A DNA stretch of 64,000 nucleotides from Schmidtea polychroa. Its lineage: Eukaryota. The stretch lies in NCBI GenBank assembly GCA_044892525.1, contig CM097885.1, positions 12,030,001 to 12,094,000 of the forward strand, read 5' to 3'. Numbering within the stretch: position 1 is the first letter of the stretch; every line of letters starts with the position of its first letter. Position numbers and translations under genes: made by a program. Of the stretch, positions 245-24,778 are shown in pieces. The notes under the pieces are model-generated. The model was not told the origin of the DNA. It saw only the letters and a list, made by a program, of their open reading frames with translations, and searched no databases.

Positions 245-1039
245 TTTTTACGAATAGTCACTCCAAAATAACACATACTACAAAATACTATACTGCTTTA
301 GGGATAAATAAGGACACAGACTTGGGTTAGGCTTTAAATTTTACTGCATTTAGATTGGATATGTTCTGAAATATGAAAAATCTACGAATAATGATTTCGA
401 AATTATTTGAAAATTTTTATTGACTTTTAAATAAGAAACATCTTTGAACCACGAAAAGTGCATTTTCTGTGCTTTTCGTTAAAAATAATAAAAATATGTC
501 ACTGTCTTAGAAAAGAGTGTAAAAAAGAAAGAAAGAACGTTTTGTATATGTAAATATTTGATATATTTACTTTGAAACATTATTCATAACATTTAATCAG
601 GCAAATCAAGAAAGGAAATAATTAATTATATTACAATAATAATTAATTTAAAATATAGAAATCGACCAAAATTAAAATTAAAATTTTCCGAAAAATCCTT
701 TTTTGCATTTGGTACCATTTGGCGCCTCTCTGTGTGTGGCATGATAGACTCCCTTGCTCCCTTCAATACGCAACCTTTTGCAAATCTGATAAAAATGTTA
801 TTTATTAATGTAATCTTAAATGGAATTTAAAAAACAGATAGTTTTCAAAATGTGAAGTTTTGTAAGACAACGGAAATTTTGGAACGCTGACCGTCTTAAA
901 ATAAACTGCAAATAGACTTATTGCAAATTCTTCTTTAAAGCTGAATTCTTTACCGGTCATGTTAGCTTTATTGTCATATCCTCGGAAATAAAAATATTTT
1001 TCCTATTCATTTAACTCAATTATGAAAACAAACAATGTA

Positions 1040-2111
1040 CACCCAACTCTTTTTTACACGGTCTTTTTTTACACGATTTTGAAATAACACGGTCCACAAA
1101 AAAGGCACAAATCTTCTTTTTTTGCACGAAATATTCGGTTTAACACTATTTCCAAAAAAATTATGGATAGTATTACTCATGCTTCTTTTGCCATAAAACA
1201 ACTGCGGACTTCTACCTTAAATGCTTGTTGGAAGAAAATATGGCCAGCATGTGTTAAAATTAGTAACTCTGTAATACAAAATGCAGTTGTGTGTTCTGAA
1301 ATTGTAACGCTTTCACACGAAATTGGTGGTGAGGGCTTTGAAAATATGCAAGTTGCGATATAGAGAAGTTGATGCTTGAAAACTTTTAGATGATGAGGAC
1401 TTGATTGAAGCTATAACAGTTAATGGTATTAATGAGAACCATAGTGACGAAGACGAAGGTGAAGGTGAAATGCATCAACTAACTTCTGATTTAATTCGCG
1501 ATGGCTTAAAATTTGGTACCAGTATGGAACAATTTTTTCTCTCTCATGATCCTAACTTGGAACGTGCATTAAAACTCCAACGGAATTTACAGGTTTGTAT
1601 GGCTGGCTATCAATAACTTTATAAGGAAGTTACAATAGCAATAATAACAATGCCAGCTTATAACAGATTTTATCATAAGAAAACCAATATCAGATTTGGT
1701 AGACCTAAGTGAGTAAAGCAATTTTAGTCAGTCTATAATAAAGTAGTGATTATAAAGTAGTGATAATAAATATTAGTTGCTAATTAAGACTTATATTTCG
1801 AATTTGAATTTAATTTATATGTATTTATGAATAAAAATTTTATTTGTTTTTTACTTATGGACTAAAATTACTATTATTATCTATTTTTAATAAAAACATG
1901 TATGGATTATATTTTGTAAAACTTATATAATATGGTTTCAAGATTTACTATTTTTTTGCACGGTTTTTTAGAACAACTAATGGTTCCTTTTTCTATTTTA
2001 CACGGTTTTCTATAATTGTAGAACACATCCTCAATTTTACTATGGTTAACATGTCTTTTTTTACACGATTTTCGTTCGAACGTATCTACCGTGTAAAAAA
2101 AGAGTTGGGTG
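1040..2111 (+). mobile_element. Internally deleted pogo/Tigger-family DNA transposon
   Basis: TIRs CACCCAACTCTTTTTTACACGG / CCGTGTAAAAAAAGAGTTGGGTG with TA on both sides (1038-1039, 2112-2113). Internal frameshifted fragments (TLNACWKKIWP, EIGGEGFENM, DPNLERALKLQR) resemble the C-terminus of Tigger-type transposases. Confidence 0.88.
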
Positions 2112-2441
2112 TACTTAAAATATTTCTTCAACAGATTTAGAAAGCAGTGGGTAAAAGAGATTTAAATATATTAACAGTGCCGACCATAAGATTGTTTTAC
2201 CGCCCTTTGTGAAATTCTTGACACATTACATCTTCATAGGAAACTATTCAATAAGTAATAAGAAAATATTCGAGAACTTATAAGTATTATTATAATATAT
2301 TACATTGCATTTTTTAAATAATACAAATATAATATATACTAATATTAATACATAAAACTCACAAGAAATTTAAATAATAAAGGATAATTATGATACATTT
2401 ATTTTTCTTGTTTTCATAGAAGTACTTAGTTCATTTAATAA

Positions 2442-3175
2442 TGCCTGGGACTGACTAAGAAAGTAACATGATAAACCAATCAAACCAATTGGTTTTGACA
2501 CCTACACGTATGTTTGTTTATGTGCATAAATTAAATAATCTGATTGGATGAGGTACGTACTTATAATTCCATTTTTTGTCAAATGAATGAGGTGAAATAC
2601 TATGAATGGAGGTTCTATGTACTTTAAAGAAGTCATCTGATGAAATATTTCGTCATATGACATATGCATATGACAACATATATCTTTCTAGATCCACAAT
2701 ATATTGTTGCAAATCATTATTCAATCATGGTCGTGAAATTGTGCACCATGATTATTTCAATGTTGGTAGACAAAAATGATCAAAAAATGACGCAATGTGA
2801 GGCGATTATTCATTCTGAAAGACGAATTAAGGTGGGTGAAATAGCAGAGTTACTTAAAAAATGTGTTGGCAGTTGTTACAACATCATTGGGAAATTAGGC
2901 TATCGCAAATTATGCTGACGATTTGTTCCAAAGATTTTCTCTCCTGGCATGAAGGAAATGCGCCTCAACAGCACACTGTCAAATTTGCAACTGTTGAATC
3001 AATGTGTCGACGCATTTATTAATAATATTGTTACTGAGGATGAGACACCTTTTTCATTATACTTACCTGAAACCAAATGGGAATCATCTGAATGGAGAGA
3101 TGTAGAAGAGAAACCCACTCTAAATATGATAAGTGGCACCTCACATCGAAAACAACTGATGTTCATATTATTGAA
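2442..3175 (+). mobile_element. Decayed, 3'-truncated mariner transposase
   Basis: ERRIKVGEIAELL..GSCYNIIGKLGYRKLC*RFVPR matches the mariner HTH and WVPR linker; FINNIVTEDETPFSLYLPETKWESSEW matches the first catalytic Asp motif (IVTGDETW..PETK.QS.EW). Contains stops and frameshifts. The 5' boundary is approximate. Confidence 0.85.
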
Positions 3176-4320
3176 GTGTTCTGCAAAGTAATTTTGGCGC
3201 TCTTCTCATATGGCACCCAAATACAGCACGTCTATTGATTATTTTTAGGAGTCGATACTGAATATTGAAATATCTTCAATTAATGGCTTCTTTAATCAAA
3301 GACTCTCGGTATGCCACTCATTAACAGCCGACTCCAGCACCCTAAGGTAAATTACTGAAAGAAAATACAAAAATAATTGAATTTCATTAGATAAAACCAA
3401 TTAGTGCTCTGTTTTAATTTCAAGTATTCACAGCATTATGCACATTAATGTTCTGATCCAATGACTTTATCAATAAAGTTTCACAAATTATTCCCAATAG
3501 TTTTAAAAATTTTAAAATGAAACATATCTATTTTTTTCTTACAGTCCTCATACATATTGCATACTTTACATGGATTTGACAAAATCTTATAATTCAAATT
3601 TCACAACAGCTTGCTTATCCTTCTTTTGTAATCTGTAGAACCTTCTGAGTACAGCAATATCAACATAAATTACAGCTCATCGTCCTTACACTTGCTATTT
3701 AATTTATTAAACTTATTATCTAACTACCTTATACGAATAAAATTACACCCAAATTTCTTAAACATGGATCTTTAGAATTTTTAATAGATTTATTTGATTA
3801 TTTTACTTGTCCATAGTTCAACTTTAGTCAAATATTTCATATAAAGTTTATTTTTAAGACATTTTTTTCATATTTTAAGGCAATACATTAAGGCATGTAC
3901 ATTCAAATACATTCAAATAATAATAATAATTATAATAAATTTTTTAATTTAATTTTTGAAATTTTTAATTATTAAAGATTTATTTCACTTCCTACTGTTT
4001 ATTTTCTTTACTTTGTAAAGCGCAAATCAGTACAGTAATAACAATGCAATATTGTTCAACTTTAGAATAAAATCCTTTAATGTCTATTTTTGTTTTGTAT
4101 TATTTTATAAGATTTTAGTAAATAAAAGTCTCCTTGTATAATAATAATGAAAACCACATTTTCTTTTCGCAATTATTATCTCATAATTAAAAATAATTTT
4201 ACATAAATAATTTTAAACTGTATTTTTAATAATAATAAAATTCCGAATTTCATTTTTTATTAAAAAAATTAAATTAAATAATTAAAAATAATTAAATACT
4301 TTTAACAAATATATATAAAT

Positions 4321-4380
4321 ACAATGTCAATTGAAAAGAAATCAGTGGTGAAATTTGAAAAAAAGTTCTTATAATAAATA
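4321..4380. repeat. Terminus of a dispersed repeat family (aatgtcaattgaaaagaaatcagtggtgaaatttgaaaaaagttcttataa)
   Basis: The same ~55-bp motif occurs at ~43886-43938, ~54115-54165 and ~62950-63002, and inverted at ~62242-62308. Confidence 0.75.
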
Positions 4381-4869
4381 AAGGTTTAAAAAATATTTTT
4401 ATTTTTTTACATTAAAACTAGTTTGATTTTTTTATATTAAATGAAAAATAATTTTCAATTTACAATATTTTTATTATTCTTTTAGACTAATTAAATTATT
4501 GTTATTCTTTTTATTTAAACAATTTATTTCAATATTACCCATTTTGGAGATCTAAAAACCCATTTTTATATTTTTAGTTTTTTTTATTTTGGAGGCTGGA
4601 CCCTCGGATTGATTGAATGAAAAAATCTCACTTTTACTTTTATTGGAAGAAACACTTCCAATACTACTTTTTATAAGAAACTTTATTTGCTCATTTAATG
4701 TTCAATACTTTCAAATTGATTCCTTCCGCCAAAATAAATACTTCAGAATTCAGAAGAGTAATATTTTCCTTGTCTTTATGGACTAAACTCCCTGAGCTTT
4801 ACCTACATTTGTTGGCCAACTGTACCACATCTGCTTTGATCTCATATATGATTACTGAGGGGTCTTTAA

Positions 4870-5643
4870 AAAATGAAGAATAAAATATGAAATTTATTTG
4901 TCTTTTTCATGTAAACAGTTGGTGTTAAGTTACTCTCAATTTATCTTTCATTCATGCTTTTCTTTAAAGAGATTTCAAGTTGAGAGCCCGAAAGACTACC
5001 TTGAGACTCGAGCTTTTCTGGTTCAAAATTTACTGTAGTTTCAGCCATAACCAAAGTGCAATTGTGCAAAAATGTTTTCACGACGTGTTCTAATAATTTT
5101 AATGCCAGACACATTTCTTGAACTTTTAGGCGTCTTCTTTGAAAATGTAATTTATAAATCCAAGAACGTCAATTTATTTTTCAATGAAACTCTTAACTCC
5201 AAAAATCTTTTCAACATTCCAATTAATGAACCCCATCTGGTTTTGACGTCCAGAACAAGACACCAAATAGAAGTCACTGAATAGAAGCCAACTTTGGCTC
5301 TCATACGAGCAAGAATTTCTACGAGGGATGGTTTGTTACTGGGAAAGTAGTCTGTGACCTTGTGCTTCTTACAACCTGGCTCTTCTGAACGTATGACAAA
5401 GGGGGTAATTTCAAGAATGTTTCAGAAAGTGCGTTGAAGTCTATTTGATGATTTTTCAAAAAATGAGTGAACAATTCTTTAGTCGATTCCCAATTTGTAC
5501 TGATTTCCTTGAGACATTTGACGCACATCGCCTCGTTACCATTTTCTTAAATAAAATATTGCCAAGCTTTAAATATTGGAAGAAACATTCAAGGTAAAAT
5601 GACTCTGAATTTTGATTATTTATTCGGTGATGGTGGCACTGAT
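4870..5643 (-). mobile_element. Decayed, internally deleted hAT-superfamily transposase gene
   Basis: The minus strand reads KAWQYFI*ENGNEAMCVKCLKEISTNWESTKELFTHFLKNH (BED zinc finger, ~5570-5445) and LVLDVKTRWGSLIGMLKRFLELR (hAT DVxTRWNS motif, ~5260-5190). Stops are present; boundaries are approximate. Confidence 0.8.
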
Positions 5644-5761
5644 CTAAAGACATTTAAAATCACAAGGAAGTAGGTAGATAGTAGCCCACTGCAACAATTA
5701 CCCCCCCCCCCGGGAGGGGGGTTGTTGCAACTTTTTTTTTGTTGCAACTTTTGATTACGCA

Positions 5762-8370
5762 ATTTTTCAGACTATAGTGAGGGGGTCTCGATGGTCCTAG
5801 GATTTTCAATACAAAAAATTTTTTTCTATACAAAAACGATGGTCCTGGGATTTTCAATACAAAAAAAATTTTTCTATACAAAAATCCGACTACCACTAAA
5901 AAAGCATGGAATTTTCACACTATAGTGAGGGGGTCTCGATGGTCCTGGGATTTTCAATACAAAAAATTTTTTTCTATACAAAAATTCTACTATCAATAAA
6001 AAAGCCAAGGATTTATCACGCTATAGTGAGGTGAGTCTCCTTGGTCCTGAGAAATAGGTGGTCTACACTAAAAAACGTGGTAATTTAAGGTCTCGGGATA
6101 TTTTCAATACAAAAAGCTGGTCTACACTAAAAAAGCATGGTAATTTAAGGTCTCAGGATATTTTCAATACAAATAGGTGGTCTACACTAAAAAAGCCAAG
6201 GATTTTTCAGACTATAGTGAGGTGAGTCTCCTTGGTCCTGAGAAATAGGTGGTCTACACTAAAAAACGTGGTAAATTTTTCAATTAAAGTAAATAATGGT
6301 TCTAAAAAATTAAATTAAAGTAAATTAAGGTTCTAAAAATTAAATTACAGTAAATAATGGTTCTAAAAAATTAAATTAAAATAAATTATGGTCCAAATTT
6401 TTAAATTAAAGTAAATTATGGTTCTAAAAAATTAAATGACAGTAAATTATGGTTCTAAATTTTATATTAAAGTTAATTATGGTTCTAAATTTTAAATTAA
6501 AGTTAATTAAGGTCCAAATTTTTAAATTAAAGTAAATAATGGTTCTAAAAATTAAATTAAAGTTAATTAAGGTCCAAATTTTTAAATTAAAGTAAATAAT
6601 GGTTCTAAAAATTAAATTAAAGTAAATTAAGGTTCTAAAAAATTAAAATAAAGTAAATTAAGGTCTAAATTTTTAAATTAAGTAATCAATGGTAAAAAAT
6701 TTTAAATAAATAGGTGGTCTACACTAAAAAACGTGGTAATTTAAGGTCTCAGGATTTTTTTTTACAAAAAGGCGGTCTTCAATAAAGAAGCATGGTAATT
6801 TAAGGTCTCAGGATATTTTCAATACAAAAAGCTGGTCTACACTAAAAAAGCATGGTAATTTAAGGTCTCAGGATATTTTCAATACAAAAAGGCGGTCTTC
6901 AATAAAGAATCATGGTAATTTAATGTCTCAGGATATTTTCAATAAAAAAATCCGACTATCAATAAAAAAGCATGGTAATTTAAGGTCTCAGGATATTTTC
7001 AATACAAAAAGCTGGTCTACACTAAAAAGCATGGTAATTTAAGGTCTCAGGATATTTTCAATACAAAAAGGCGATCTTCAATAAAGAAGCATGGTAATTT
7101 AAGGTCTCAGGATATTTTCAATACAAAAATCCGACTATCAATAAAAAAGCATGGTAATTTAAGGTCTCAGGATATTTTCAATACAAAAGCTGGTCTTCAA
7201 TAAAAAAGCATGGTAATTTAAGGTCTCAGGATATTTTCAATACAAAAAGCTGGTCTACACTAAAAAAGCATGGTAATTTAAGGTCTCAGGATATTTTCAA
7301 TACAAAAATCCGACTATCACTAAAAAAAGCATGGATTTTTCGAATTAAATTAAGGTGGGTCTCCTTGGTCCTGAGAAAAAGGTGGTCTACACTAAAAAAC
7401 GTGGTAAATTTTTCAATTAAAGTAAATAATGGTCAAATTTTTCAATTACAATAAATTATGGTCCTAAAAATTAAATTATAGTAAATTATGGTCAAAATTT
7501 TTCAAATACAGTAAATTATGATCCAAAAAATTAAATTAAAGTAAATTATGGTTCTAAAAAATTAAATTACAGTAAATAATGGTCCTAAAAATTAAATTAC
7601 AGTAAATTATGGTCCTAAAAAAATTAAATTACAGTAAATTATTATCCAAATTTTTCAATTACAGTAAATAATGGTTCTAAAAATTAAATTATAGTAAATT
7701 ATGGTCAAAATTTTTCAAATACAGTAAATTATGGTCCAAAAAATTAAATTAAAGTAAATTATGGTTCTAAAAAATTAAATGACAGTAAATTATGGTTCTA
7801 AAAATTAAATGATAGTAAATTATGGCTCAAATTTTTAAATTACAGTAAATTATGGTTCAAATTTTTAAATTAAAGTAAATTATGGTTCTAAAAATTAAAT
7901 TATAGTAAATTATGGTCAAAATATTTCAAATACAGTAAATTATGGTCCAAAAAATTAAATTAAAGTAAATTATGGTTCTAAAAAATTAAATTACAGTAAA
8001 TTATGGTTCTAAAAATTAAATCATAGTAAATTATGGCTCAAATTTTTAAATTACAGTAAATTATGGTCCAAATTTTTAAATTAAAGTAAATTATGGTTCT
8101 AAAAAATTAAATTACAGTAAATTATGGCTCAAATTTTTAAATTAAAGTAAATTATGGTTCTAAAAATTAAATTAAATTAAGGTTCTAAATTTTAAATTAA
8201 AGTAAATTAAGGTTCTAAAAAATTAAAATAAAGTAAATTAAGGTCCAAATTTTTAAATTAAGTAATCAATGGTAAAAAATTTTAAATAAGTAAATTAAAG
8301 TAATAATTTTTAAATTAAGTAATCAATGGTAAAAAATTTTAAATAAGTAAATTAAAGTAAGATTTTAAAA
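5762..8370. repeat. Layered subterminal satellites: ~60-bp modular repeats (5762-6270, 6710-7410) alternating with ~30-31-bp arrays (6270-6710, 7410-8370); mirrored at ~20345-22720
   Basis: 60-mer core catggtaatttaaggtctcaggatattttcaatacaaaaa, 10 tandem copies at 6721-7330; 30/31-mer gtaaattatggttctaaaaaattaaattaca, dozens of copies. Confidence 0.95.
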
Positions 8371-8609
8371 TTTAATTACAAAAAGTTGAAGGTGTTTGAG
8401 AATTGAAATTTTTTAATGAAAATTTTCAATGGTAATTTTTAATGAGAATTTTTATGGAATATTTTTTTAAGTAATTTTTAATAGAAAATTTTATGAAATA
8501 TTTTTCAATGGTAATTTTTAATAGAAATTTTTATGAAATATTTTTCAATGATAATTTTAGATGGAAATTTTTATGAAATATTTTTCAAAGACAAATTTTA
8601 ATAATAATT

Positions 8610-9100
8610 CAACAACAAATCAACAACTTAGTACCAACAACCAGTAACTTACAAACATGTATTACCAACCAGATACCTACAACCAGTTACCTGATACCAA
8701 TTACTAACAACCAAAAACATACAACTAACTAGGTACCAGATACCAACTAGCTACCAAGTACTAACAACTAGTTACTAACAACCAGGTACTAAACACTGTC
8801 AACTAGATACCAAACACTTACAACCTACAACTAGTTACTAACAACTAGTTACCTGATACCAACTACTCAACAACCACCTACCAAGTACATACAACTAGTT
8901 ACTAACAACCAGTTACCTACAACTAGATACTAACAACTAGATACCAACAACCAGTTACCAACTACTAAGCATCATCAACCAACTACTAAGTACCTACAAC
9001 CAGTTACCAACTACTAAGCATCATCAACCAACTACTAAGCACCTACAACCACATACCCATTAACTAGATACCAAGTACTTACAACCAGGTGACCACATGA
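8610..9100. repeat. CA-rich degenerate minisatellite (acaactagttacta / acaaccagttacct variants); mirrored at ~19620-20105
   Basis: Repeated short units with strong strand asymmetry; similar units recur at 9700-9820 and 10330-10660. Confidence 0.85.
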
Positions 9101-10179
9101 AATTATTGGTTAAATAGGTATTTTAATGTTTAATTTTTAAATTAACTAATCAATGATCTAAAATATTAAAGTTAAAGTCAATTTAGAATGAAAGTTTTCT
9201 GGGATATTCAATGTTAATTTTAGATGCAAATCTTCGTCAATTAATCAATGACCACATGAAATTATTGGTTAAATATGAAAATAAGGATTATATTTAGTTG
9301 TTAAGTAAATTATGGTGTAAAATTAAGAAATAAAGAATAATTAGGTAAATTAAGGATAAGTAAAGTTAAAAATTTTAAATAAGTAAATTAAGGTTCAAAA
9401 TTTTAAATTAAAGAAAACAATGGTTTTAATTTTAAATTAAAGCTAAATGAGTAAATTAAAGTAATAATTTTTAAATAAGTAAATTAAGGTTCAAAATCTA
9501 AAATTAAGTAACCAATGGTTCAAATTTTTAATTAAAGCTAAATAAGTAAATTAAAGTAAGATTTTTAAATTTATTATCAAAATATTGAATAACTACCAAT
9601 TTTTTTGAGAAATGTAATTTTTAATGAAAATTTAAATGGAATAATAATAATTATAATAATAATAATAATAATAATAAAAATAATAATAATAATAATTCAA
9701 CAGTTACCAACAATCGGTTACTAAATATTTTTAACTAGGTGCTAACAAATACTTTCAACATGATACCACGTACTAACTAACTCTCAAACAACCACATACT
9801 TACAACTAACTACTTACAATCAACTAAATATTCTTTATTGTATTTTATGAAATGCTTTTTAAATTAATATTTTTTATACAGCTTCTATAATAATTTTAAT
9901 TACAATCAGTAGAAAAACCTTTTCAAAATGTCTAAATTTAACAAAAATGTTGATTTTCATCAAAAAATGAATAATTGTCAACTCTAACACCACGTGGAAT
10001 TCAAAATAATTTTAATTACAATGAAAGACTAATGAATTCTAATTTACAAAACATTTTTCTTTTAAATGATAACTACTGACTTATTATTGCAATGTAAAAA
10101 TCGCATTCAATAAATACTTATTATTGATCGGTTTTATTATATATACTCTGAGTTTATCCGACAGGATGTTTTGACCCCC

Positions 10180-10294
10180 TAAGGGTACAGGTCGTAAGGG
10201 TACTGGTCGTAAGGGTACTGGTCGTAAGGGTACTGGTCGTAAGGGTATTAGTCGTAAGGGTACTGGTCGTAAAGGTACTAGTCGTAGGGGTATT
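10180..10294. repeat. 15-bp tandem repeat (taagggtactggtcg) x ~7.7; mirrored at ~18422-18536
   Basis: Directly visible. A single inverted copy of the motif (agtacccttgcgac) lies near the other end of the nested element at ~13285-13298. Confidence 0.95.
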
Positions 10295-11177
10295 GATCAC
10301 TCTCAATCCCCACCTACTCATTAATTAGCTACCATGTACTAACCACTAGGTTTCAAACAACTAAATACTAAACACTTACAACCATGTACTAACAACCACC
10401 ATCAAAACCCATCGAGAAATTAACCAATATCAACCTACAACTAGATACTTACAACCAGATACCTGCTACCAAGTACTTACAACAAGATACCAAGTACCAA
10501 CAATCAACTAACCACACATAAAAATAATAGCAATTAAATACAAAATATTCTTCATCACATACAATATCTTCTTATCAAAATCTAAAAAGTCAATCAGATA
10601 CCTGCTACCAAGTACTTACAACAAGATACCAAGTACCAACAACTATGTACTAACAAATTGATCTTTAAAAGAAAAATACTCTTCACTTGAAAAATTGGAT
10701 GAAAAATTAATTGAACTCAAGGCATCAATAACTAGGTAAAAATTGATTAAATAATTGTAAAAATTTAAATTATTCGAAATAAATATCATAAAAATTTAAT
10801 TAATGGACAAGAAAAAATTCTAGTCATCCAGTAAATAAAAAACTACTGATCATTCAAGTTGAATCAACTAAGATAATAAATTAATAAGATAAGATCTAGT
10901 AGATAATTGATTTAGATTGAATAAATTAATTGAAATAAAATTAATTTTAATTATTTTTTTAAAAGTAATACATGTACTCAAATTGATTGACTGATTTCTC
11001 AATATATTCAAAAAAAAAATCAGTATAAATTCATTACAATTATCAAAGTCAGCAATCTACAATAAAAATAATTATCATTAAATTCCAAAAGAGACTAGAT
11101 AACTAATGATAACATCTAACAAACCAGTAAATTCATTCAAATGACAATAATTGGTATATCCAAGTGAATTCTCCAAT

Positions 11178-11520
11178 AAAATCATCTAAAAAGCATCATT
11201 TTCCCCTTAAATATATCAATATTTAAAGATTGGTATTTTAATGATAAATACTTGTTAAAGATCATATATTCCCCTCAGACTAATAAGATTCCTTAAAATC
11301 CCTTAAATGACTATATTTCAACCCTTAATTCATATTAATACAAATAATTCATTAAAATCATCTAAAAAGCATCATTTCCCCTAAATATATCAATATTTAA
11401 AGATTGATATTTTAATGATAAGTACCCGTAAAGGATCATATATTCCCCTCAGACTAATAAGATTCCTTGAAATCCCCTTTAAATGACTATAATTCTAACT
11501 TTAATTCGTATTATCACGAA
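11178..11520. repeat. ~175-bp direct duplication inside the nested element, followed by modular ~40-60-bp repeats at ~12020-12430
   Basis: aaaatcatctaaaaagcatcatt...gatcatatattcccctcagactaataagattcctt occurs at ~11179 and ~11354. Confidence 0.85.
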
Positions 11521-13861
11521 TATTTCCCTATAAAACATGTAAAATCATTAACCCTAAATAATTTATAAAATCTAATGATAAAACTGGTTATAATTAATTT
11601 TTTGTTAATCACTGTACTCGATATTTTAAATAAATATTACTACAATATAACTCACTAGGTCCCATTGAAAGATTAAATTTATCCATTCAATAAAATATAT
11701 TTCTTCAAATGATCATTTTTACCAATATTCAACCGATTTAATTACTAATTAAAATCAAGATTTCTTCCAATAAAGATCAATTTTATTTAGTCAATGTTTT
11801 GTGTCCATATTTCTCAACTTTTGTCGTTGTCCGTCTTAATAAAGATAAAAATAATTTAAAGTTGATATCAATCCCATTTATCTGTAAAGTTTTCATCGTC
11901 AAAACCAAGTAAATCGATCATTATCCTTACTTAATAGAACATTGTTCTAAAACATAAATCTAAATTAATATACAATGAATTAATCACAACCTAATAAAAC
12001 GATATAATTATTATTGATACATAACTGACTAATTGACATTTCCCTTAAAACAATGATATTTTACCAACATCACCCTTAAAAAATCATATATTCCCATCGA
12101 AACCCTTCCCTCATTAAAAGCAACCGACTATATCTCCCTCACAATAATATATTCCCATCTTAACCCATCCTTCATTAAATCTAACCGACTATATCCCCTT
12201 AAAAGATCATATTTTCCCCATCTTAACCGACCTCTCATTAAATCTAACCAACAATATCCCATCTTAACCGATCTCTCATTAAATCTAACCGACTATATCC
12301 CTTTAAAAATCGTATATTCCCATCTTAACCCATCCCTCATTAAATTTAATAACCGACTATATCCCATCTTATCCGATCTCTCAGCAAATATTTCTACCCT
12401 TTTAAACATCTATCCGATTATATCCCTTATTTTCCCTAAAGATTTCACCCACTTGAGCCCTTTAATATATATCAATCCTCTTAAAATCCTCAGAGAACTT
12501 CAAAAATATGACTTTTAATTAATTGTTATAGAACCAGACAAATAATAAGAGCCCATTAAAAGATCAAAATTCACTAAATTTTCTACAAATATTTACCATC
12601 AAATACTGGAGATGATATATATTGATTGATCATAATTCTTCAGCTATTCAACCAATCATTTTCAAGCAATAACAGCAAACTAAATTTCTGTATATCCTAC
12701 AATAATTATCACGTAAATTTAAAGTCCCTGATAAAGTTAACTAGTTTCTTAGCTCATGTTTTTTAAAGTTCATCAATGAGTAAATATTCTTAGAAAATTA
12801 TTGAAAAAATTATTTAGTGAAATATATTACAAACTTATCATTAAAAATTTATTCTATCACTTGAAATTAATTTTTATTTAAAAACTATTCAATAAAATAC
12901 CACTAATTATCAAGAAATTAATTAAATTTATCAATTAAATTTATCACCATTAAAACTTTTAATCAGTCAACATGAAATTCTTATAAAATTGTTCAATATC
13001 CTCATAAAAATTTATCCTACCACTTGATTATTGTACAAACTCTAATTATTAACTTCATTAAAAATTAAAAATACATCCAATTATCAAGAAATTAATTAAA
13101 TTTATCTTAGAACTAACTTTGAATTATTAAATATTCATTCAATAATCATGAAATTCACAAAAATAATAGAAATTTACAAAATTCAAAGAAATTTACTTGA
13201 ATAAAACCATCAACTCTAAAAATTATCAATGAATGCCTTAAACATCAAATTTGCCTAAATAATCATTCAAATAAAAGCATTAAAAGTACCCTTGCGACAT
13301 GTTGAATGTGAGTAGTACCCATAGGGGGACAGAATATTTTGTCGGATAAACTCAGAGTATATATTAATTAACTCATTCTTCATTGAATTAGTCAAATTAT
13401 CATAAATTTCGATAAAAATTCTAAAGTGGTAAGCAATGTAAAGAGAAATATTCTTTAAACTTTGATAAAATTAACAATGAAGGTGGTAAGAATCTTCATT
13501 AAAGTGAGGAAATTATTCATTACTCGATTCAAATGGGTGAAAATAATTGGTAGAATAATTCATTAATGGATCATTGAATGGGCATAGATAAGAAGAAAGT
13601 TGATAAGAATGCAAATATATTAATTGAATTTATTTAAAATTATTTCATAAAATTCATAAATTTAATAAAAAAAAGAAATATTTGTGGGGAATAATTAATC
13701 AAAATCGGGCGGAATATAAGTGATAATAATTAGTGGAAAATAGAGAATCGGGGGGATATTAGTGATTAATTAGTGAAAAATAGAGAATTGGTGGAATATA
13801 AGTGGAGAGGATATGTAATTTAAACTAGTTTATTACATAACAAGCTGTGAATGATATTTTA

Positions 13862-14770
13862 CTAACATTTTACTAAATTTTTAAAGTATGTAATTTAATT
13901 TTAATTATATTTTAAAATTGTATATATTTTGAATATCATTCTATTGTTTAATTTCAATAATAAGTTTAAAAAAATCTATAATAATTAATAAATTAATATC
14001 TTGTTAACATTTATTTGAGAATTTAAAAAACTTTACTTAAAATTAGTGAAGTATTTAATTTTAATTGTATTTTTTAAGACATATATTTGAGTATTAACTT
14101 ATTTTGATTGAAGTATCACATTTAATATTGTGATGATTGTTTTCTAAATCGAAATATTTAGTGTAAAATAGTAAATTTAATAACAAATAGCTACAATATT
14201 AAAGGTCTTTTTTAAAAAAATATTTACTTTCTATTACCTAATTCCATCATTAAGTTTAAAAAGTCTATAACTGTTAATAATTCAATTTCTTATTCACATT
14301 TTCTAATAAAACTTATATTTTTAAATTTAGTGTAAAGAATTTAATTTTAATTGTATTTTATAAGTCATTTATTTGAATATTTATCTTATTTTTATTGAAA
14401 GGAGTAATATAATTCATATTATGATATTCGTTTCGAAATATTTAGTGTAGAATCGTAAATTTAATAATATATAGCTATTATTGCAAGTACTTATACAACA
14501 AAAACTTTTTTATTTCTAATGTTTTATTCCATAAATATGTTTTAAAGTATATAACTGGTAATAAATTAATTTCTTATTTAAATTTATTTAAAAAAGCTTT
14601 ACTTATAAAATTTATATTTTCGAAGACTTATATTTGAATATTAACCTATTTTGATTGAAAAGGGTAATTGATTTAGAAATTATTAAGTGTAAATCAAAAC
14701 ATTTAAATTATTAAGGTATTAAAGTACTTATTCAAACATTAAAAAAAAAGATCTAATCAATAATTCTCAA
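13862..14770. repeat. Non-palindromic central spacer made of ~3 diverged ~285-290-bp tandem units
   Basis: An anchor motif (taagtttaaaaa..tctataa..ttaataa.tt.aat.tctt) recurs at ~13961, ~14251 and ~14536. Confidence 0.75.
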
Positions 14771-17700
14771 TAAAATATCATTCACAGCTTGTTATGTAAT
14801 AAAATAGTCACGGCTTGTTATGTAATAAACTAGTTTAAATTACATATCCTCTCCACTTATATTCCACCAATTCTCTATTTTTCACTAATTAATCACTAAT
14901 ATCCCCCCGATTCTCTATTTTCCACTAATTATTATCACTTATATTCCGCCCGATTTTGATTAATTATTCCCCACAAATATTTCTTTTTTTTATTAAATTT
15001 ATGAATTTTATGAAATAATTTTAAATAAATTCAATTAATATATTTGCATTCTTATCAACTTTCTTCTTATCTATGCCCATTCAATGATCCATTAATGAAT
15101 TATTCTACCAATTATTTTCACCCATTTGAATCGAGTAATGAATAATTTCCTCACTTTAATGAAGATTCTTACCACCTTCATTGTTAATTTTATCAAAGTT
15201 TAAAGAATATTTCTCTTTACATTGCTTACCACTTTAGAATTTTTATCGAAATTTATGATAATTTGACTAATTCAATGAAGAATGAGTTAATTAATATATA
15301 CTCTGAGTTTATCCGACAAAATATTCTGTCCCCCTATGGGTACTACTCACATTCAACATGTCGCAAGGGTACTTTTAATGCTTTTATTTGAATGATTATT
15401 TAGACAAATTTGATGTTTAAGGCATTCATTGATAATTTTTAGAGTTGATGGTTTTATTCAAGTAAATTTCTTTGATTTTTGTGAATTTCTATTATTTTTG
15501 TGGATTTCATGATTATTGAATGAATTTCTTTGAATTTTGTAAATTTCTATTATTTTTGTGAATTTCATGATTATTGAATGAATATTTAATAATTCAAAGT
15601 TAGTTCTAAGATAAATTTAATTAATTTCTTGATAATTGGATGTATTTTTAATTTTTAATGAAGTTAATAATTAGAGTTTGTACAATAATCAAGTGGTAGG
15701 ATAAATTTTTATGAGGATATTGAACAATTTTCTAAGAATTTCATGTTGACTGATTAAAAGTTTTAATGGTGATAAATTTAATTGATAAATTTAATTAATT
15801 TCTTGATAATTAGTTGTATTTTATTGAATAGTTTTTAAATAAAAATTAATTTCAAGTGATAGAATAAATTTTTAATGATAAGTTTGTAATATATTTCACT
15901 AAATAATTTTTTCAATAATTTTCTAAGAATATTTACTCATTGATGAACTTTAAAAAACATGAGCTAAGAAACTAGTTAACTTTATCAGGGACTTTAAATT
16001 TACGTGATAATTATTGTAGGATATACAGAAATTTAGTTTGCTGTTATTGCTTGAAAATGATTGGTTGAATAGCTGAAGAATTATGATCAATCAATATATA
16101 TCATCTCCAGTATTTGATGGTAAATATTTGTAGAAAATTTAGTGAATTTTGATCTTTTAATGGGCTCTTATTATTTGTCTGGTTCTATAACAATTAATTA
16201 AAAGTCATATTTTTGAAGTTCTCTGAGGATTTTAAGAGGATTGATATATATTAAAGGGCTCAAGTGGGTGAAATCTTTAGGGAAAATAAGGGATATAATC
16301 GGATAGATGTTTAAAAGGGTAGAAATATTTGCTGAGAGATCGGATAAGATGGGATATAGTCGGTTATTAAATTTAATGAGGGATGGGTTAAGATGGGAAT
16401 ATACGATTTTTAAAGGGATATAGTCGGTTAGATTTAATGAGAGATCGGTTAAGATGGGATATTGTTGGTTAGATTTAATGAGAGGTCGGTTAAGATGGGG
16501 AAAATATGATCTTTTAAGGGGATATAGTTGGTTAGATTTAATGAAGGATGGGTTAAGATGGGAATATATTATTGTGAGGGAGATATAGTCGGTTGCTTTT
16601 AATGAGGGAAGGGTTTCGATGGGAATATATGATTTTTTAAGGGTGATGTTGGTAAAATATCATTGTTTTAAGGGAAATGTCAATTAGTCAGTTATGTATC
16701 AATAATAATTATATCGTTTTATTAGGTTGTGATTAATTCATTGTATATTAATTTAGATTTATGTTTTAGAACAATGTTCTATTAAGTAAGGATAATGATC
16801 GATTTACTTGGTTTTGACGATGAAAACTTTACAGATAAATGGGATTGATATCAACTTTAAATTATTTTTATCTTTATTTAGACGGACAACGACAAAAGTT
16901 GAGAAATATGGACTTAAAACATTGACTAAATAAAATTGATCTTTATTGGAAGAAATCTTGATTTTAATTAGTAATTAAATCGGTTGAATATTGGTAAAAA
17001 TGATCATTTGAAGAAATATATTTTATTGAATGGATAAATTTAATCTTTCAATGGGACCTAGTGAGTTATATTGTAGTAATATTTATTTAAAATATCGAGT
17101 ACAGTGATTAACAAAAAATTAATTATAACCAGTTTTATCATTAGATTTTATAAATTATTTAGGGTTAATGATTTTACATGTTTTATAGGGAAATATTCGT
17201 GATATTACGAATTAAAGTTAGAATTATAGTCATTTAAAGGGGATTTTAAGGAATCTTATTAGTCTGAGGGGAATATATGATCCTTTACGGGTACTTATCA
17301 TTAAAATATCAATCTTTAAATATTGATATATTTAGGGGAAATGATGCTTTTTAGATGATTTTAATGAATTATTTGTAATAATATGAATTAAGGGTTGAAA
17401 TATAGTCATTTAAGGGATTTTAAGGAATCTTATTAGTCTGAGGGGAATATATGATCTTTAACAAGTATTTATCATTAAAATACCAATCTTTAAATATTGA
17501 TATATTTAAGGGGAAAATGATGCTTTTTAGATGATTTTATTGGAGAATTCACTTGGATATACCAATTATTGTCATTTGAATGAATTTACTGGTTTGTTAG
17601 ATGTTATCATTAGTTATCTAGTCTCTTTTGGAATTTAATGATAATTATTTTTATTGTAGATTGCTGACTTTGATAATTGTAATGAATTTATACTGATTTT

Positions 17701-20700
17701 TTTTTTGAATATATTGAGAAATCAGTCAATCAATTTGAGTACATGTATTACTTTTAAAAAAATAATTAAAATTAATTTTATTTCAATTAATTTATTCAAT
17801 CTAAATCAATTATCTACTAGATCTTATCTTATTAATTTATTATCTTAGTTGATTCAACTTGAATGATCAGTAGTTTTTTATTTACTGGATGACTAGAATT
17901 TTTTCTTGTCCATTAATTAAATTTTTATGATATTTATTTCGAATAATTTAAATTTTTACAATTATTTAATCAATTTTTACCTAGTTATTGATGCCTTGAG
18001 TTCAATTAATTTTTCATCCAATTTTTCAAGTGAAGAGTATTTTTCTTTTAAAGATCAATTTGTTAGTACATAGTTGTTGGTACTTGGTATCTTGTTGTAA
18101 GTACTTGGTAGCAGGTATCTGATTGACTTTTTAGATTTTGATAAGAAGATATTGTATGTGATGAAGAATATTTTGTATTTAATTGCTATTATTTTTATGT
18201 GTGGTTAGTTGATTGTTGGTACTTGGTATCTTGTTGTAAGTACTTGGTAGCAGGTATCTGGTTGTAAGTATCTAGTTGTAGGTTGATATTTGTTAATTTC
18301 TCGATGGGTTTTGATGGTGGTTGTTAGTACATGGTTGTAAGTGTTTAGTATTTAGTTGTTTGAAACCTAGTGGTTAGTACATGGTAGCTAATTAATGAGT
18401 AGGTGGGGATTGAGAGTGATCAATACCCCTACGACTAGTACCTTTACGACCAGTACCCTTACGACTAATACCCTTACGACCAGTACCCTTACGACCAGTA
18501 CCCTTACGACCAGTACCCTTACGACCTGTACCCTTAGGGGGTCAAAACATCCTGTCGGATAAACTCAGAGTATATATAATAAAACCGATCAATAATAAGT
18601 ATTTATTGAATGCGATTTTTACATTGCAATAATAAGTCAGTAGTTATCATTTAAAAGAAAAATGTTTTGTAAATTAGAATTCATTAGTCTTTCATTGTAA
18701 TTAAAATTATTTTGAATTCCACGTGGTGTTAGAGTTGACAATTATTCATTTTTTGATGAAAATCAACATTTTTGTTAAATTTAGACATTTTGAAAAGGTT
18801 TTTCTACTGATTGTAATTAAAATTATTATAGAAGCTGTATAAAAAATATTAATTTAAAAAGCATTTCATAAAATACAATAAAGAATATTTAGTTGATTGT
18901 AAGTAGTTAGTTGTAAGTATGTGGTTGTTTGAGAGTTAGTTAGTACGTGGTATCATGTTGAAAGTATTTGTTAGCACCTAGTTAAAAATATTTAGTAACC
19001 GATTGTTGGTAACTGTTGAATTATTATTATTATTATTTTTATTATTATTATTATTATTATTATAATTATTATTATTCCATTTAAATTTTCATTAAAAATT
19101 ACATTTCTCAAAAAAATTGGTAGTTATTCAATATTTTGATAATAAATTTAAAAATCTTACTTTAATTTACTTATTTAGCTTTAATTAAAAATTTGAACCA
19201 TTGGTTACTTAATTTTAGATTTTGAACCTTAATTTACTTATTTAAAAATTATTACTTTAATTTACTCATTTAGCTTTAATTTAAAATTAAAACCATTGTT
19301 TTCTTTAATTTAAAATTTTGAACCTTAATTTACTTATTTAAAATTTTTAACTTTACTTATCCTTAATTTACCTAATTATTCTTTATTTCTTAATTTTACA
19401 CCATAATTTACTTAACAACTAAATATAATCCTTATTTTCATATTTAACCAATAATTTCATGTGGTCATTGATTAATTGACGAAGATTTGCATCTAAAATT
19501 AACATTGAATATCCCAGAAAACTTTCATCCTAAATTGACTTTAACTTTAATATTTTAGATCGTTGATTAGTTAATTTAAAAATTAAACATTAAAATACCT
19601 ATTTAACCAATAATTTCATGTGGTCACCTGGTTGTAAGTACTTGGTATCTAGTTAATGGGTATGTGGTTGTAGGTGCTTAGTAGTTGGTTGATGATGCTT
19701 AGTAGTTGGTAACTGGTTGTAGGTACTTAGTAGTTGGTTGATGATGCTTAGTAGTTGGTAACTGGTTGTTGGTATCTAGTTGTTAGTATCTAGTTGTAGG
19801 TAACTGGTTGTTAGTAACTAGTTGTATGTACTTGGTAGGTGGTTGTTGAGTAGTTGGTATCAGGTAACTAGTTGTTAGTAACTAGTTGTAGGTTGTAAGT
19901 GTTTGGTATCTAGTTGACAGTGTTTAGTACCTGGTTGTTAGTAACTAGTTGTTAGTACTTGGTAGCTAGTTGGTATCTGGTACCTAGTTAGTTGTATGTT
20001 TTTGGTTGTTAGTAATTGGTATCAGGTAACTGGTTGTAGGTATCTGGTTGGTAATACATGTTTGTAAGTTACTGGTTGTTGGTACTAAGTTGTTGATTTG
20101 TTGTTGAATTATTATTAAAATTTGTCTTTGAAAAATATTTCATAAAAATTTCCATCTAAAATTATCATTGAAAAATATTTCATAAAAATTTCTATTAAAA
20201 ATTACCATTGAAAAATATTTCATAAAATTTTCTATTAAAAATTACTTAAAAAAATATTCCATAAAAATTTTCATTAAAAATTACCATTGAAAATTTTCAT
20301 TAAAAAATTTCAATTCTCAAACACCTTCAACTTTTTGTAATTAAATTTTAAAATCTTACTTTAATTTACTTATTTAAAATTTTTTGCCATTGATTACTTA
20401 ATTTAAAAATTATTACTTTAATTTACTTATTTAAAATTTTTTACCATTGATTACTTAATTTAAAAATTTGGACCTTAATTTACTTTATTTTAATTTTTTA
20501 GAACCTTAATTTACTTTAATTTAAAATTTAGAACCTTAATTTACTTTAATTTAATTTTTAGAACCATAATTTACTTTAATTTAAAAATTTGAGCCATAAT
20601 TTACTGTAATTTAATTTTTTAGAACCATAATTTACTTTAATTTAAAAATTTGGACCATAATTTACTGTAATTTAAAAATTTGAGCCATAATTTACTATCA

Positions 20701-22823
20701 TTTAATTTTTAGAACCATAATTTACTGTAATTTAATTTTTTAGAACCATAATTTACTTTAATTTAATTTTTTGGACCATAATTTACTGTATTTGAAAAAT
20801 TTTGACCATAATTTACTATAATTTAATTTTTAGAACCATTATTTACTGTAATTGAAAAATTTGGACCATAATTTACTGTAATTTAATTTTTTAGAACCAT
20901 AATTTACTTTAATTTAAAAATTTGGACCATAATTTACTGTAATTTAAAAATTTGAGCCATAATTTACTATCATTTAATTTTTAGAACCATAATTTACTGT
21001 CATTTAATTTTTTAGAACCATAATTTACTTTAATTTAATTTTTTGGACCATAATTTATTGTATTTGAAAAATTTTGACCATAATTTACTATAATTTAATT
21101 TTTAGAACCATTATTTACTGTAATTGAAAAATTTGGACCATAATTTACTGTAATTTAATTTTTTTAGGACCATAATTTACTGTAATTTAATTTTTTGAAC
21201 CATAATTTACTGTAATTTAATTTTTAGGACCATTATTTACTGTAATTTAATTTTTTAGAACCATAATTTACTTTAATTTAATTTTTTGGATCATAATTTA
21301 CTGTATTTGAAAAATTTTGACCATAATTTACTATAATTTAATTTTTAGGACCATAATTTATTGTAATTGAAAAATTTGACCATTATTTACTTTAATTGAA
21401 AAATTTACCACGTTTTTTAGTGTAGACCACCTTTTTCTCAGGACCAAGGAGACCCACCTTAATTTAATTCGAAAAATCCATGCTTTTTTTAGTGATAGTC
21501 GGATTTTTGTATTGAAAATATCCTGAGACCTTAAATTACCATGCTTTTTAGTGTAGACCAGCTTTTTGTATTGAAAATATCCTGAGACCTTAAATTACCA
21601 TGCTTTTTTAGTGTAGACCAGCTTTTTGTATTGAAAATATCCTGAGACCTTAAATTACCATGCTTCTTTATTGAAGACCGCCTTTTTGTAAAAAAAAATC
21701 CTGAGACCTTAAATTACCACGTTTTTTAGTGTAGACCACCTATTTATTTAAAATTTTTTACCATTGATTACTTAATTTAAAAATTTAGACCTTAATTTAC
21801 TTTATTTTAATTTTTTAGAACCTTAATTAACTTTAATTTAATTTTTAGAACCATTATTTACTTTAATTTAAAAATTTGGACCTTAATTAACTTTAATTTA
21901 AAATTTAGAACCATAATTAACTTTAATTTAAAATTTAGAACCATAATTTACTGTCATTTAATTTTTTAGAACCATAATTTACTTTAATTTAAAAATTTGG
22001 ACCATAATTTACTTTAATTTAATTTTTTAGAACCATTATTTACTGTAATTTAATTTTTAGAACCTTAATTTACTTTAATTTAATTTTTTAGAACCATTAT
22101 TTACTTTAATTGAAAAATTTACCACGTTTTTTAGTGTAGACCACCTATTTCTCAGGACCAAGGAGACTCACCTCACTATAGTCTGAAAAATCCTTGGCTT
22201 TTTTAGTGTAGACCACCTATTTGTATTGAAAATATCCTGAGACCTTAAATTACCATGCTTTTTTAGTGTAGACCAGCTTTTTGTATTGAAAATATCCCGA
22301 GACCTTAAATTACCACGTTTTTTAGTGTAGACCACCTATTTCTCAGGACCAAGGAGACTCACCTCACTATAGCGTGATAAATCCTTGGCTTTTTTATTGA
22401 TAGTAGGATTTTTGTATAGAAAAAAATTTTTTGTATTGAAAATCCCAGGACCATCGAGACCCCCTTACTATAGTGTGAAAATTCCATGCTTTTAGTGGTA
22501 GTCGGATTTTTGTATTGAAAATATCCCGAGACCTTAAATTACCACGTTTTTTAGTGTAGACCACCTATTTCTCAGGACCAAGGAGACTCACCTCACTATA
22601 GCGTGATAAATCCTTGGCTTTTTTATTGATAGTAGGATTTTTGTATAGAAAAAAATATTTTGTATTGAAAATCCTAGGACCATCGAGACCCCCTCACTAT
22701 AGTCTGAAAAATTGCGTAATCAAAAGTTGCAACAAAAAAAAAGTTGCAGCAAAAAAAAAGTTGCAGCAGAACCCCCCCCCCCCCGGGGGGGTAATTGTTG
22801 CAGTGGGCTACTATCTACCTACT
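14771..22823 (-). repeat. Right inverted arm of the giant palindrome (~8.05 kb)
   Basis: Reverse complement of 5669-13861. Confidence 0.95.
15301..18570. mobile_element. Nested TA-flanked TIR element, right-arm mirror copy
   Basis: CTCTGAGTTTATCCGACA at 15301 and TGTCGGATAAACTCAGAG ending at 18570. It carries an extra 58-bp tandem duplication (15465-15580) that the left copy lacks. Confidence 0.75.
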
Positions 22824-23215
22824 CAAGGAGAATGTGTTAGTAATCTTAGCTAGTAAAATAAATACAAAATCAATAGAATTTGCATGCTCAATTTCTATGG
22901 CCAATCTGATGGGCACAGACATATAAAACGCGTACGTTGACGTGCTTTACACGCAGAAAATGGTAAGATAAATCAAGAAAAGACTGACATCAGACCATAC
23001 TAAGTACCTAATAACCCTACAATAAATAAAGAATATAACTGAAATTAAATCAGTTAGAAAAAATTTCTCATGATTTTCTTTGAAGCATGACATCCACAAA
23101 TATGCATCCTCCCTATATAAATAATATTTAATAATAAATATTAATTTACTAATTTCCCAAATATGCATATCTCGAGTTGACGCTTTCTCAGGGCTAATAT
23201 TGAAGTTATCATCAT

Positions 23216-23254
23216 AATAATTATTATTATTAATATTATTATTTTTTTTTATTA

Positions 23255-23325
<71 letters not shown>
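23216..23325. repeat. (TAT)n microsatellite
   Basis: Directly visible. Confidence 0.95.
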
Positions 23326-23327
<2 letters not shown>

Positions 23328-24778
23328 CATAAATAATTACTGAACATTAGTATCAAATGAACAGTATAAAAAATCTATTAAAATTTAAATAAATGTCTAA
23401 AATTACATATTCAAAAACGAAATATTTGAATAAATGCATTTTAGAAATTTTATAAATAAAAAGCAATTTATTTTACTAAATAGAATAAATTACTCGACAT
23501 TTGACAAAGAATTTCAAATACAATAACTAAATTAACCACTTAATGTATACATTTAATTTGAATTTTTCTTCGGTGACTCGTAACTGTCACAGGTATTTAG
23601 TACAGGTGTCTATACAATTATTGGATCTCGCCCGCGTCTTGAACTAGCATGTAAAACCACGTGATCCCCCGTCTATGTTACGGGCACGTACCTTAAGTTG
23701 TTAATGTAAAAGCCGGTAAAATAACCAAAAACATATAAAACAAATATTGCGTTATATATAATATATGAACTAAAATTGTAATACGTAACATCAGTCAATT
23801 TTACACTTTTCATTTCTCTTTTCCTTCATAATTAAAATTTATTTTTTGAACAAATATTATTTCCAAATGTTGGTGCTGACCGAAGAATAAACTCAAGCGA
23901 CCTATAGGTTAACCTGGCTTGATCCAGATGGTTGATTTACAGTAGCAATTTATTTATTTACAGTTTCAATCACATGGAACAATACAATTCACAAGCAAAT
24001 TAAAAAAACACCAAAATATCAGATTGACATTACAGTGCGAATATATTCACATTAGCAACTCCATATATTTCACCCATTCTAGTATTTACTTTATTTGCCG
24101 ATATTTCAATAGATTTTGTGACAATTATGCAGTTCTGCTGGTCAAGTGTCTCTTGGCCAATCATGTTGCACGTTGTTTTGTATTGTATATCTTTATTAAA
24201 ACATGTTTTGCTAATGAATTATTTTCTGGTATTTTTCATGCAATTTATATTGCTAATATAATATCTGGTTAGTAAGGAAAATCATTGTCTGGGGCTCAGA
24301 TGGTTAATATAGTGTCATTTTAGAATTATTTATTTGCATTTTCAATAAGGATTTAAATAATATTTAAGTATAAACAAAAATTAGATTAAGTCTATCTTAA
24401 AGTGTCTGATCATTTTGTTTCTCTTTAAAAAGAAATGTTACCAATTATATTTTCCTTAACATATCTCCAGACCCCCTTCCAATATAAGTTAAAATAATAC
24501 AAAAAGGGGATTGAAAACCAAATTTGTCTTTGTTCCCATTTCTTTAAAGGTTTGTAGTCTGTATTCTTAATACTAACGTAATTGTTTTATTCTTTCCTCA
24601 GTAGTCATATTATAGTATACAATATTCAAAGGATAATAAAGAGCCTTAATGAAAACCTTTTGTGATCATTTTGGTTTGGTTTGTTTTTTATATACATATT
24701 TTCTTCAATGTTTGGTAACTGAAAAGTTCTTTGATTAATAGGAAACTGAAATTAATATTTAATAAATTTGAATCGTAG

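Follow-up and report, generated by a model that had tools for sequence, protein, structure and literature searches.

The window analysed here (64,000 nucleotides of the Schmidtea polychroa contig CM097885.1, positions 12,030,001 to 12,094,000, from an animal genome of 781 Mb with a G+C content of roughly 25%) contains an element of 17,155 bp, designated W and placed at window positions 5669–22823. W is one insertion of a high-copy, gene-less and non-autonomous derivative of the Polinton/Maverick transposons, which are young and numerous in this genome. Two inverted arms (5669–13862 and 14796–22823), which together make up about 95% of the element, are arranged around a core of 933 bp (13863–14795). 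Other copies in the same genome are referred to as C1a, C2a and so on. The features of the locus, with window coordinates, strand and the evidence in brackets, are the following.

5663–5668, no strand: left target-site duplication, CAAGGA (direct reading).
5669–5685, plus: left terminus, a 17-mer starting with AGTAGG (direct reading; genome-wide count of the 17-mer).
5689–5748, no strand: G+C-rich stem-loops, a C-run/G-run hairpin followed by a GTTGCAAC hairpin (DNA folding).
5669–13862, plus: left arm, 8,194 bp (repeat search, self-comparison).
5669–6710, plus: terminal repeat region common to the gene-bearing Polintons (W 1–1042 against C2a, 93.9%).
6052–8372, no strand: tandem arrays of the outer arm, with periods of 30, 60 and 121 bp (Tandem Repeats Finder).
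9243–12692, plus: segment with homology to C1a's non-coding right end, from C1a 22418 down to 19883 (blastn pieces at 81–92%).
12732–14080, plus: segment of arm and core with homology to C1a's left subterminal region, from C1a 2454 down to 1094 (blastn pieces at 83–93%).
13863–14795, no strand: non-palindromic central core, 933 bp, with two diverged direct repeats of 284 bp (repeat search, comparison of copies).
14796–22823, minus: right arm, 8,028 bp, repeating the left arm in inverted orientation (17 substitutions in 4,442 aligned positions of the inner 4.5 kb).
22807–22823, minus: right terminus, the left terminus in reverse complement (direct reading).
22824–22829, no strand: right target-site duplication, CAAGGA (direct reading).

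The repeat search revealed an inverted pair at 8164–13193 and 15523–20552 that is 100% identical over 5,030 nt, a second one at 13122–13862 and 14796–15536 (741 nt, 98%) and more pairs in the outer part. When W was compared with itself by BLAST, 93% of the element fell on near-antidiagonal inverted matches. The outer 2.5 kb or so of each arm consists of the tandem arrays, whose copy numbers are unequal between the arms, and the arms are therefore imperfectly collinear in this part. W starts with AGTAGGTAGATAGTAG and ends with its reverse complement, and an exact CAAGGA is found on each side. The original prediction, made from the letters of this window, had described two inverted arms covering about 95% of the element, these termini, the CAAGGA duplication and the absence of genes; the present analysis agrees with it in all these respects.

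The ends of W show the 5'-AG...CT-3' arrangement of Polintons/Mavericks, with an AGTAG motif followed by GTAG/ATAG repeats, and CAAGGA is a target-site duplication of the 6 bp typical of these elements. The polymerase and integrase genes that autonomous members carry were not found in W by inspection of frames, Pfam or tblastn. The longest stop-to-stop frame has 153 residues and is a repeat-derived, low-complexity one. A Pfam search of the six frames of W (at least 80 residues) gave nothing above cut-off, with two sub-threshold matches in a single frame, and all frames of at least 110 residues from the three gene-bearing relatives described below found no match inside W by tblastn. Rfam returned no family in 5000–23500 at gathering score and none in 5600–22900 at E-values up to 1. 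The stem-loops next to the left terminus folded as DNA with an energy of -16.9 kcal/mol (z = -3.78), and none of 200 shuffles was as good. Their C-runs and G-runs are rich in G+C inside an element of otherwise 22–25% G+C, and mirrored G+C-rich hairpins are placed at the right end (22744–22803), with run lengths that differ between the two ends. These terminal hairpins may represent a putative origin or packaging signal.

The ends of W are abundant throughout the genome. The exact terminal 17-mer occurs 699 times in forward and 692 times in reverse orientation and its reversed control not once in either (0/0), which excludes a chance origin of these matches. A 27-mer from the core (14157–14183) was found 920 and 837 times in the two orientations when up to two mismatches were allowed (control, 0 and 1). 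The first 138 bp of W are present at no fewer than 40 other places with 92–98% identity (40 scored out of 2,270 candidates), and the 1,701-bp centre is present in full at no fewer than 35 other places with 82–98% identity (40 scored out of 2,228 candidates). Thirteen further copies were fetched, nine as plus/minus pairs from the best terminus matches and four through matches of the centre. Nine of the resulting 14 are palindromic well past the terminal repeat, three carry genes (C1a, C2a and C1b), and C4a (6.8 kb) and C1c (9.8 kb) are gene-less with a unique part that is not palindromic. The palindromic derivative is present in well over a thousand copies, each with a 6-bp duplication; among the end-to-end copies, W included, the duplication is exact in 13 of 14 and its sequence is different every time. 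The mobile family with further 6-bp duplications that the original prediction had anticipated was thus recovered through the terminal sequence, and the additional palindromic copies are numerous, with a single centre common to them. A second terminus pair (contig C1:12094256–12110853), 16.6 kb apart and with the exact core motif at its midpoint, starts 256 bp past the end of the window, so that two palindromic copies would lie within 75 kb.

The gene-bearing copies C1a (24,732 bp), C2a (16,820 bp) and C1b (16,836 bp) share their termini with W. The first 478 bp of W are 97.7% identical to C2a 1–476 and C3a 1–477, and W 1–1042 is 93.9% identical to the right end of C2a (16820–15783). All three have genes for polymerase, integrase, ATPase and protease and are the elements with the same terminus that the original prediction had proposed to look for. 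The A32-type ATPase (PF04665) scores 30.4 bits against a cut-off of 22.8, and the adenovirus-type protease (PF00770) 27.5 bits against 21.3. The rve integrase with its chromodomain was detected with an E-value of 1.7e-5, below the Pfam cut-off. The polymerase frame, of 1,245–1,302 residues, contains the motifs Exo II, Exo III, A, B (KLLNNSLYG), C (GDTDS) and KxY, and its Atlas neighbours (score 0.98) are clusters with PF03175/PF02945. Since PF03175 itself gave no match to this frame at E-values up to 10, and the Protein Data Bank sequences none at E-values up to 0.1, the identification as a polymerase rests on the motifs and the Atlas neighbours. The list of matches for this frame has 38 entries (37 scored out of 20,964 candidates); full-length, stop-free and 99–100% identical entries number 23, and five more are full-length with one stop. 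The helper lineage is young. A frame of 427 residues, with an Atlas score of 0.97 to clusters with PF21738 and double-jelly-roll neighbours, is recognised below the guide value and constitutes a lead only towards a candidate capsid protein.

Additional genes could be seen in these relatives. Beside the ATPase gene, C1a (6804–7265, minus strand), as well as C2a and C1b, contains a TATA-binding-protein domain (PF00352, E-value 9.4e-15, 54.7 bits), an unusual cargo for a Polinton. A frame of 169 residues in C1a (3687–4193, minus strand) has a weak match to the Cas4/PD-(D/E)XK nuclease family PF01930 (E-value 0.0035, below cut-off). In the window itself, the decayed pPolB named in the original prediction (60711–61435) was confirmed by tblastn as a fragment in three shifted frames (60714–61425, plus strand), 37–65% identical to residues 708–970 of the polymerase of a gene-bearing copy.

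The composition of the arms sheds light on the origin of the palindrome. From its outer end, the arm of W is collinear first with the right end of C1a (24732 down to 19883), a non-coding region behind the polymerase gene, and next with the left subterminal region of C1a (2454 down to 1094). In each arm, some 4.9 kb from the right end of C1a are joined to about 1.4 kb from its left subterminal region. At lower stringency the core extends the homology to about C1a 838, with 74% identity over C1a 1308–838; apart from this match, comparing the core with other elements at such stringency yielded AT-rich noise at 58–62% only. Because the arm joins two separate non-coding regions of C1a, the founder was an internal-deletion derivative that was later doubled in inverted orientation. 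The original prediction of one end duplicated back on itself holds as regards the inverted doubling, and it has to be amended as regards the arm, which joins material from both ends of C1a.

The joint between the core and the right arm is identical in all six copies whose extract reached it. The spacers measure 906–1,006 bp in seven copies (W, C2n, C3n, C4n, C2m, C3c and C127), and the core of W is 94.7–99.2% identical to the cores of five others. The cleanest palindrome is that of C4n, with arms at 1–8250 and 17454–9210 that are 99.90% identical (3 mismatches and 1 gap). Since the core-to-arm joint is common to six of six copies, the palindrome arose once and then spread; that is, the inverted duplication of an internal-deletion derivative happened once and was multiplied. 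Further turn-backs do occur. In C3b, which folds back within the core, core positions 62–667 are present in both orientations and the spacer is absent. C3a has a tandem duplication of 3.7 kb within one of its arms.

Within a copy, the two arms show concerted evolution. In the inner 4.5 kb, the substitutions between arms amount to 1 in 4,397 positions in C2n, 1 in 4,500 in C4n, 1 in 4,499 in C2m, 2 in 4,495 in C3c, 7 in 4,498 in C3b and 17 in 4,442 in W. Six of the eight copies compared thus have arms at most 0.4% apart, and the distance to the nearest other copy reaches up to 7%. The remaining two are C3n, with 11 differences within the three fifths closest to the centre and a structural difference beyond them, and C127, with 314 differences in 3,858 positions; C3a was excluded from this count on account of its internal duplication. 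Over four anchor segments, the identity with the own opposite arm is at least 99.4% throughout in seven of the nine palindromic copies, as compared with 93–100% for the best other copy, and trees place the arms of one copy together as sisters. It is this excess of within-copy over between-copy identity that demonstrates the concerted evolution. The arms of C127, and those of C3a in their outer part, each resemble different other copies (97–99%), and these two are most probably recombinants rather than old copies. The plus arm of C127 is 99.1% identical to C2m, and its minus arm groups with W and C3b. The within-copy differences, summed over six copies and counted by fifths from the centre outward, are 14, 5, 7, 2 and 1 (W contributes 17 of the 29); this lean towards the centre is only a hint.

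One palindromic copy, C3c (contig C3:36571808–36587615), has no target duplication. Its flanks are themselves inverted copies of each other, over 205 of 205 nt and then, past an indel of 1,062 nt on the left side, over 3,818 nt at 99.74%, so that the palindrome continues into the retrotransposon-like flank. The right flank ends at a solo 1-kb piece of terminal repeat, next to a Polinton that belongs to a different lineage and has a polymerase 27–30% identical.

The lengths were surveyed over the initial 43.9 Mb of contig C1, where 35 adjacent plus/minus terminus pairs up to 40 kb apart were present among the termini listed. Ten of them, with one exact core motif at the midpoint, measure 14.8–17.5 kb (mean 16.2, standard deviation 1.0). 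In six pairs, three of them of about 33 kb, the core motifs are off-centre or multiple, and 19 pairs, spanning 8–36 kb, show no exact core motif. The mode at 16 kb fits the gene-bearing copies of 16.8 kb and not C1a, with its 24.7 kb. A packaging limit, as proposed in the original prediction, is consistent with these lengths (16.2 ± 1.0 against 16.8 kb), although it is unproven and shorter copies of 6.8 and 9.8 kb exist. The pairs of about 33 kb (C1:2877368–2910893, 25662891–25696050 and 25758942–25792374), whose core motifs lie away from the centre or are present twice in opposite orientations, may represent nesting of copies or a double-length form.

Taken as a whole, these data are best explained by a helper-dependent Polinton derivative whose arms are repaired through a hairpin and whose size is favoured by the length of the helper, an explanation that we consider probable. 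Because the terminus of the helper is present at both ends, the integrase and the polymerase of the helper would be able to act on the element. In this scenario the helper integrase would insert the element and the protein-primed polymerase would copy it from either end. The displaced single strand could then fold into a long hairpin, an extreme form of the panhandle by which adenovirus restores damaged terminal repeats, and within the hairpin one arm would be repaired or re-made on the other, which would keep the arms alike in each round. A length of about 16 kb would be favoured by its match to the 16.8-kb helper, comparable to the inverted dimers of half-size helper-dependent adenovirus genomes. 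A stronger version of this mechanism, in which the arms are re-made at every round through a hairpin of the whole element as single-stranded DNA, their divergence dates the insertions and the mirror dimer prevailed by filling the helper capsid, is put forward tentatively, as a possibility that has clearly less than an even chance of being correct.

Several points weigh against the helper-dependent explanation. The putative dependence of the W family on a helper is deduced from the shared ends only, and simple hairpin copying would not on its own render the arms alike, so that mismatch repair or self-primed re-synthesis must be added to the mechanism. The sample is small (14 copies of over 1,000), and the four copies picked through the centre are biased towards the palindromic form. 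Homogenisation is not universal and copies recombine, as seen in C127 and the outer part of C3a. Reads from within an arm fit both arms, and polishing could have erased true differences below about 1%. Regarding size, the gene-less copies of 6.8 and 9.8 kb have intact duplications, terminus pairs of 8–12 kb are found and one helper type has 24.7 kb rather than 16.8 kb. Finally, the palindrome of C3c runs at least 4 kb into the flank, evidence that palindromes of this kind can also be built or extended by a process on the chromosome.

This last point leads to the rival that survives best. The family and its origin would be the same, and the arms would be homogenised after insertion by gene conversion from arm to arm on the chromosome, with no part for hairpin replication. 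High arm identity is found in nearly all copies whatever their distance to other copies, C3c is an example of chromosomal inverted duplication at such a locus, and the patchy arms of C127 and C3a resemble conversion tracts or recombination. The arms of C127, however, stay 8% apart although each is 97–99% identical to other copies, so that conversion in situ would be inefficient there, and the lean of the differences towards the centre is better accommodated by outward re-synthesis, the count being small. Gene conversion as the sole homogenising process is therefore regarded as unlikely, with a chance of about one in four.

Helper-dependent copying of an already palindromic founder has also to be compared with recurrent snap-back, in which each palindromic copy would be an event of its own, starting from non-palindromic deletion derivatives. 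Such gene-less relatives do exist (C4a and C1c), a second turn-back is present in C3b, and freshly made arms would be identical, as is seen. This proposal is largely refuted by the joint between core and right arm, the same in all six copies, together with the narrow range of the seven spacers and the 35 further places with the 1,701-bp centre, since independent events are unlikely to share one non-homologous joint; it is accordingly very improbable. The description of W as a snap-back defective Polinton in the original prediction can thus be kept for the inverted terminal duplication and given up for its mode of origin, the founding joint of this large family having formed once and not in a single snap-back event at this locus.

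An assembly artefact arising from fold-back reads or collapsed repeats is hardly credible, even if palindromes and high-copy repeats assemble poorly, because the architecture is found at nine loci, eight of which have unique flanks that differ from one another and an exact 6-bp duplication each, the arms differ in the lengths of their tandem arrays and in indels, contigs of two runs cross the 5668/5669 junction, and the copy-specific variants present on both arms cannot have been created by polishing. It is just as implausible that W belongs to another superfamily of DNA transposons with 6-bp duplications or fold-back arms and is merely Polinton-like, a view recommended by long, partly tandem-repeat arms that may be likened to those of the Foldback elements of Drosophila and contradicted by the 97.7% identity of the first 478 bp to the ends of elements bearing polymerase, integrase, ATPase and protease and by the homology of the inner arm to non-coding parts of the gene-bearing C1a.

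At the locus of W, contigs from the read runs X3 and X4 cross the left junction (5668/5669) without any difference. In runs X1 and X2, from another study, a contig of 645 nt fits 5450–5668 and then continues with 426 nt unlike W. Loose ends that stem from the flanks of other copies start exactly at 5669 in X1 and X3. The simplest reading is that X1 and X2 would carry an allele without the insertion, as judged from the left junction only and not confirmed. A search of the assembly with 600 bp from each side gave no second full-length match that could represent another allele or an empty site. The X1/X2 flank (window 4700–5668) has 21 single-letter differences listed, about 2%, and a two-allele bubble at 5365–5479; this indicates that X1 and X2 probably represent a divergent strain or population. 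The left flank (window 5069–5668) is an older dispersed repeat, 75–88% identical at no fewer than 20 other places, and W was therefore inserted into another repeat.

The palindromic gene-less family is derived from Polintons: it keeps their ends, duplication and length, and it has lost the genes and extended the inverted repeats to 95% of its length. Polintons/Mavericks have genes for a family-B polymerase of the protein-primed type and for an integrase resembling that of retroviruses, according to PMC5499653. Intact vertebrate Mavericks, according to PMC8097293, measure 12.7–24.6 kb, with inverted repeats of 46–1,447 bp, 6-bp duplications and AGT/ACT end motifs, specifically (AGT)2, and most families have tens of copies. 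W resembles such autonomous, adintovirus-like elements in its AG...CT termini, short terminal repeats, 6-bp duplications, terminal inverted repeats and length. It differs from them in the lack of genes, in arms of about 8 kb instead of at most about 1.5 kb, in a copy number above 1,000 instead of tens and in an end motif of AGTAG with GTAG/ATAG repeats instead of (AGT)2.

The closest parallel in viruses is found in adenovirus, for which incomplete particles and symmetrical minichromosomes were described in work of the 1970s to 1990s. Helper-dependent vector genomes, according to PMC4189039, become larger by rearrangement when they are below about 27 kb, and a 15-kb vector was packaged as direct and inverted dimers. 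W shares with inverted dimers and snap-back genomes the absence of genes, the retention of replication ends only, the mirror duplication with an origin at both ends and a length close to that of the helper. The terminal sequence in inverted duplication is what copy-back and snap-back genomes display as well. Such genomes arise anew during helper replication, and this was not seen among the six copies with one joint, although the turn-back in C3b shows that recurrence is possible. For another trait of such genomes, replication and packaging with a helper only, what bears on the W family is its shared ends and the 23 polymerase frames that look intact. In contrast to adenovirus dimers, which arise anew in each preparation and without insertion by an integrase, the W family is integrated, inherited and present in more than 1,000 copies, with one founding joint and an asymmetric core of 0.93 kb.

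Three cellular systems are also comparable in part. The Foldback (FB) elements of Drosophila have long inverted arms of variable length with outer tandem arrays and little or no coding sequence, and they belong to a cut-and-paste superfamily with 9-bp duplications. W is similar to them in its long arms, outer short tandem arrays and small coding capacity, and dissimilar in its Polinton ends and in the 6-bp duplications of the family (13 of 14 copies). The palindromes of sex chromosomes, subject to gene conversion between arms, also consist of near-identical arms around a short unique spacer, the arms being more than 99.6% identical in six of the eight copies measured here, but these chromosomal palindromes are single immobile loci and not hundreds of insertions with their own target duplications. 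Long terminal repeat (LTR) retrotransposons provide an analogy for the clock only: two long repeats are near-identical within a copy, as if made from one template per round, whereas the repeats of W are inverted and belong to a DNA element with no reverse transcription.

To our knowledge, the copying and movement of Polintons/Mavericks have never been shown experimentally, and non-autonomous derivatives have hardly been described. No palindromic, snap-back, fold-back, defective or non-autonomous Polinton/Maverick family was found in the full-text literature, which leaves subscription journals and repeat databases mostly uncovered, so that a prior annotation is possible. The sole mention of a 'non-autonomous polinton' in the portions of the full texts searched is a remark on Tlr1.

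With copies of about 16 kb, the family would account for roughly 2–3% of the 781-Mb genome if most of them are full length, an estimate and not a measurement. More than 1,000 long, near-perfect palindromes are a hazard to the stability of the genome and to its assembly. The near-identity of the arms, against differences of up to 7% between copies, demands a homogenising step that population and long-read data alone can date and dissect. With this family, replication through a hairpin or panhandle can be tested against conversion on the chromosome in a natural setting, and so can the idea that the capsid limits size. If the stronger version of the mechanism is true, the arms would bear the first sequence-level trace of the single-stranded fold-back intermediate long proposed for Polinton replication, and their divergence would date each insertion, as that of LTRs does. 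The family would then be a population of defective interfering genomes, inherited and spread across the whole genome, that derive from an endogenous virus of animals.

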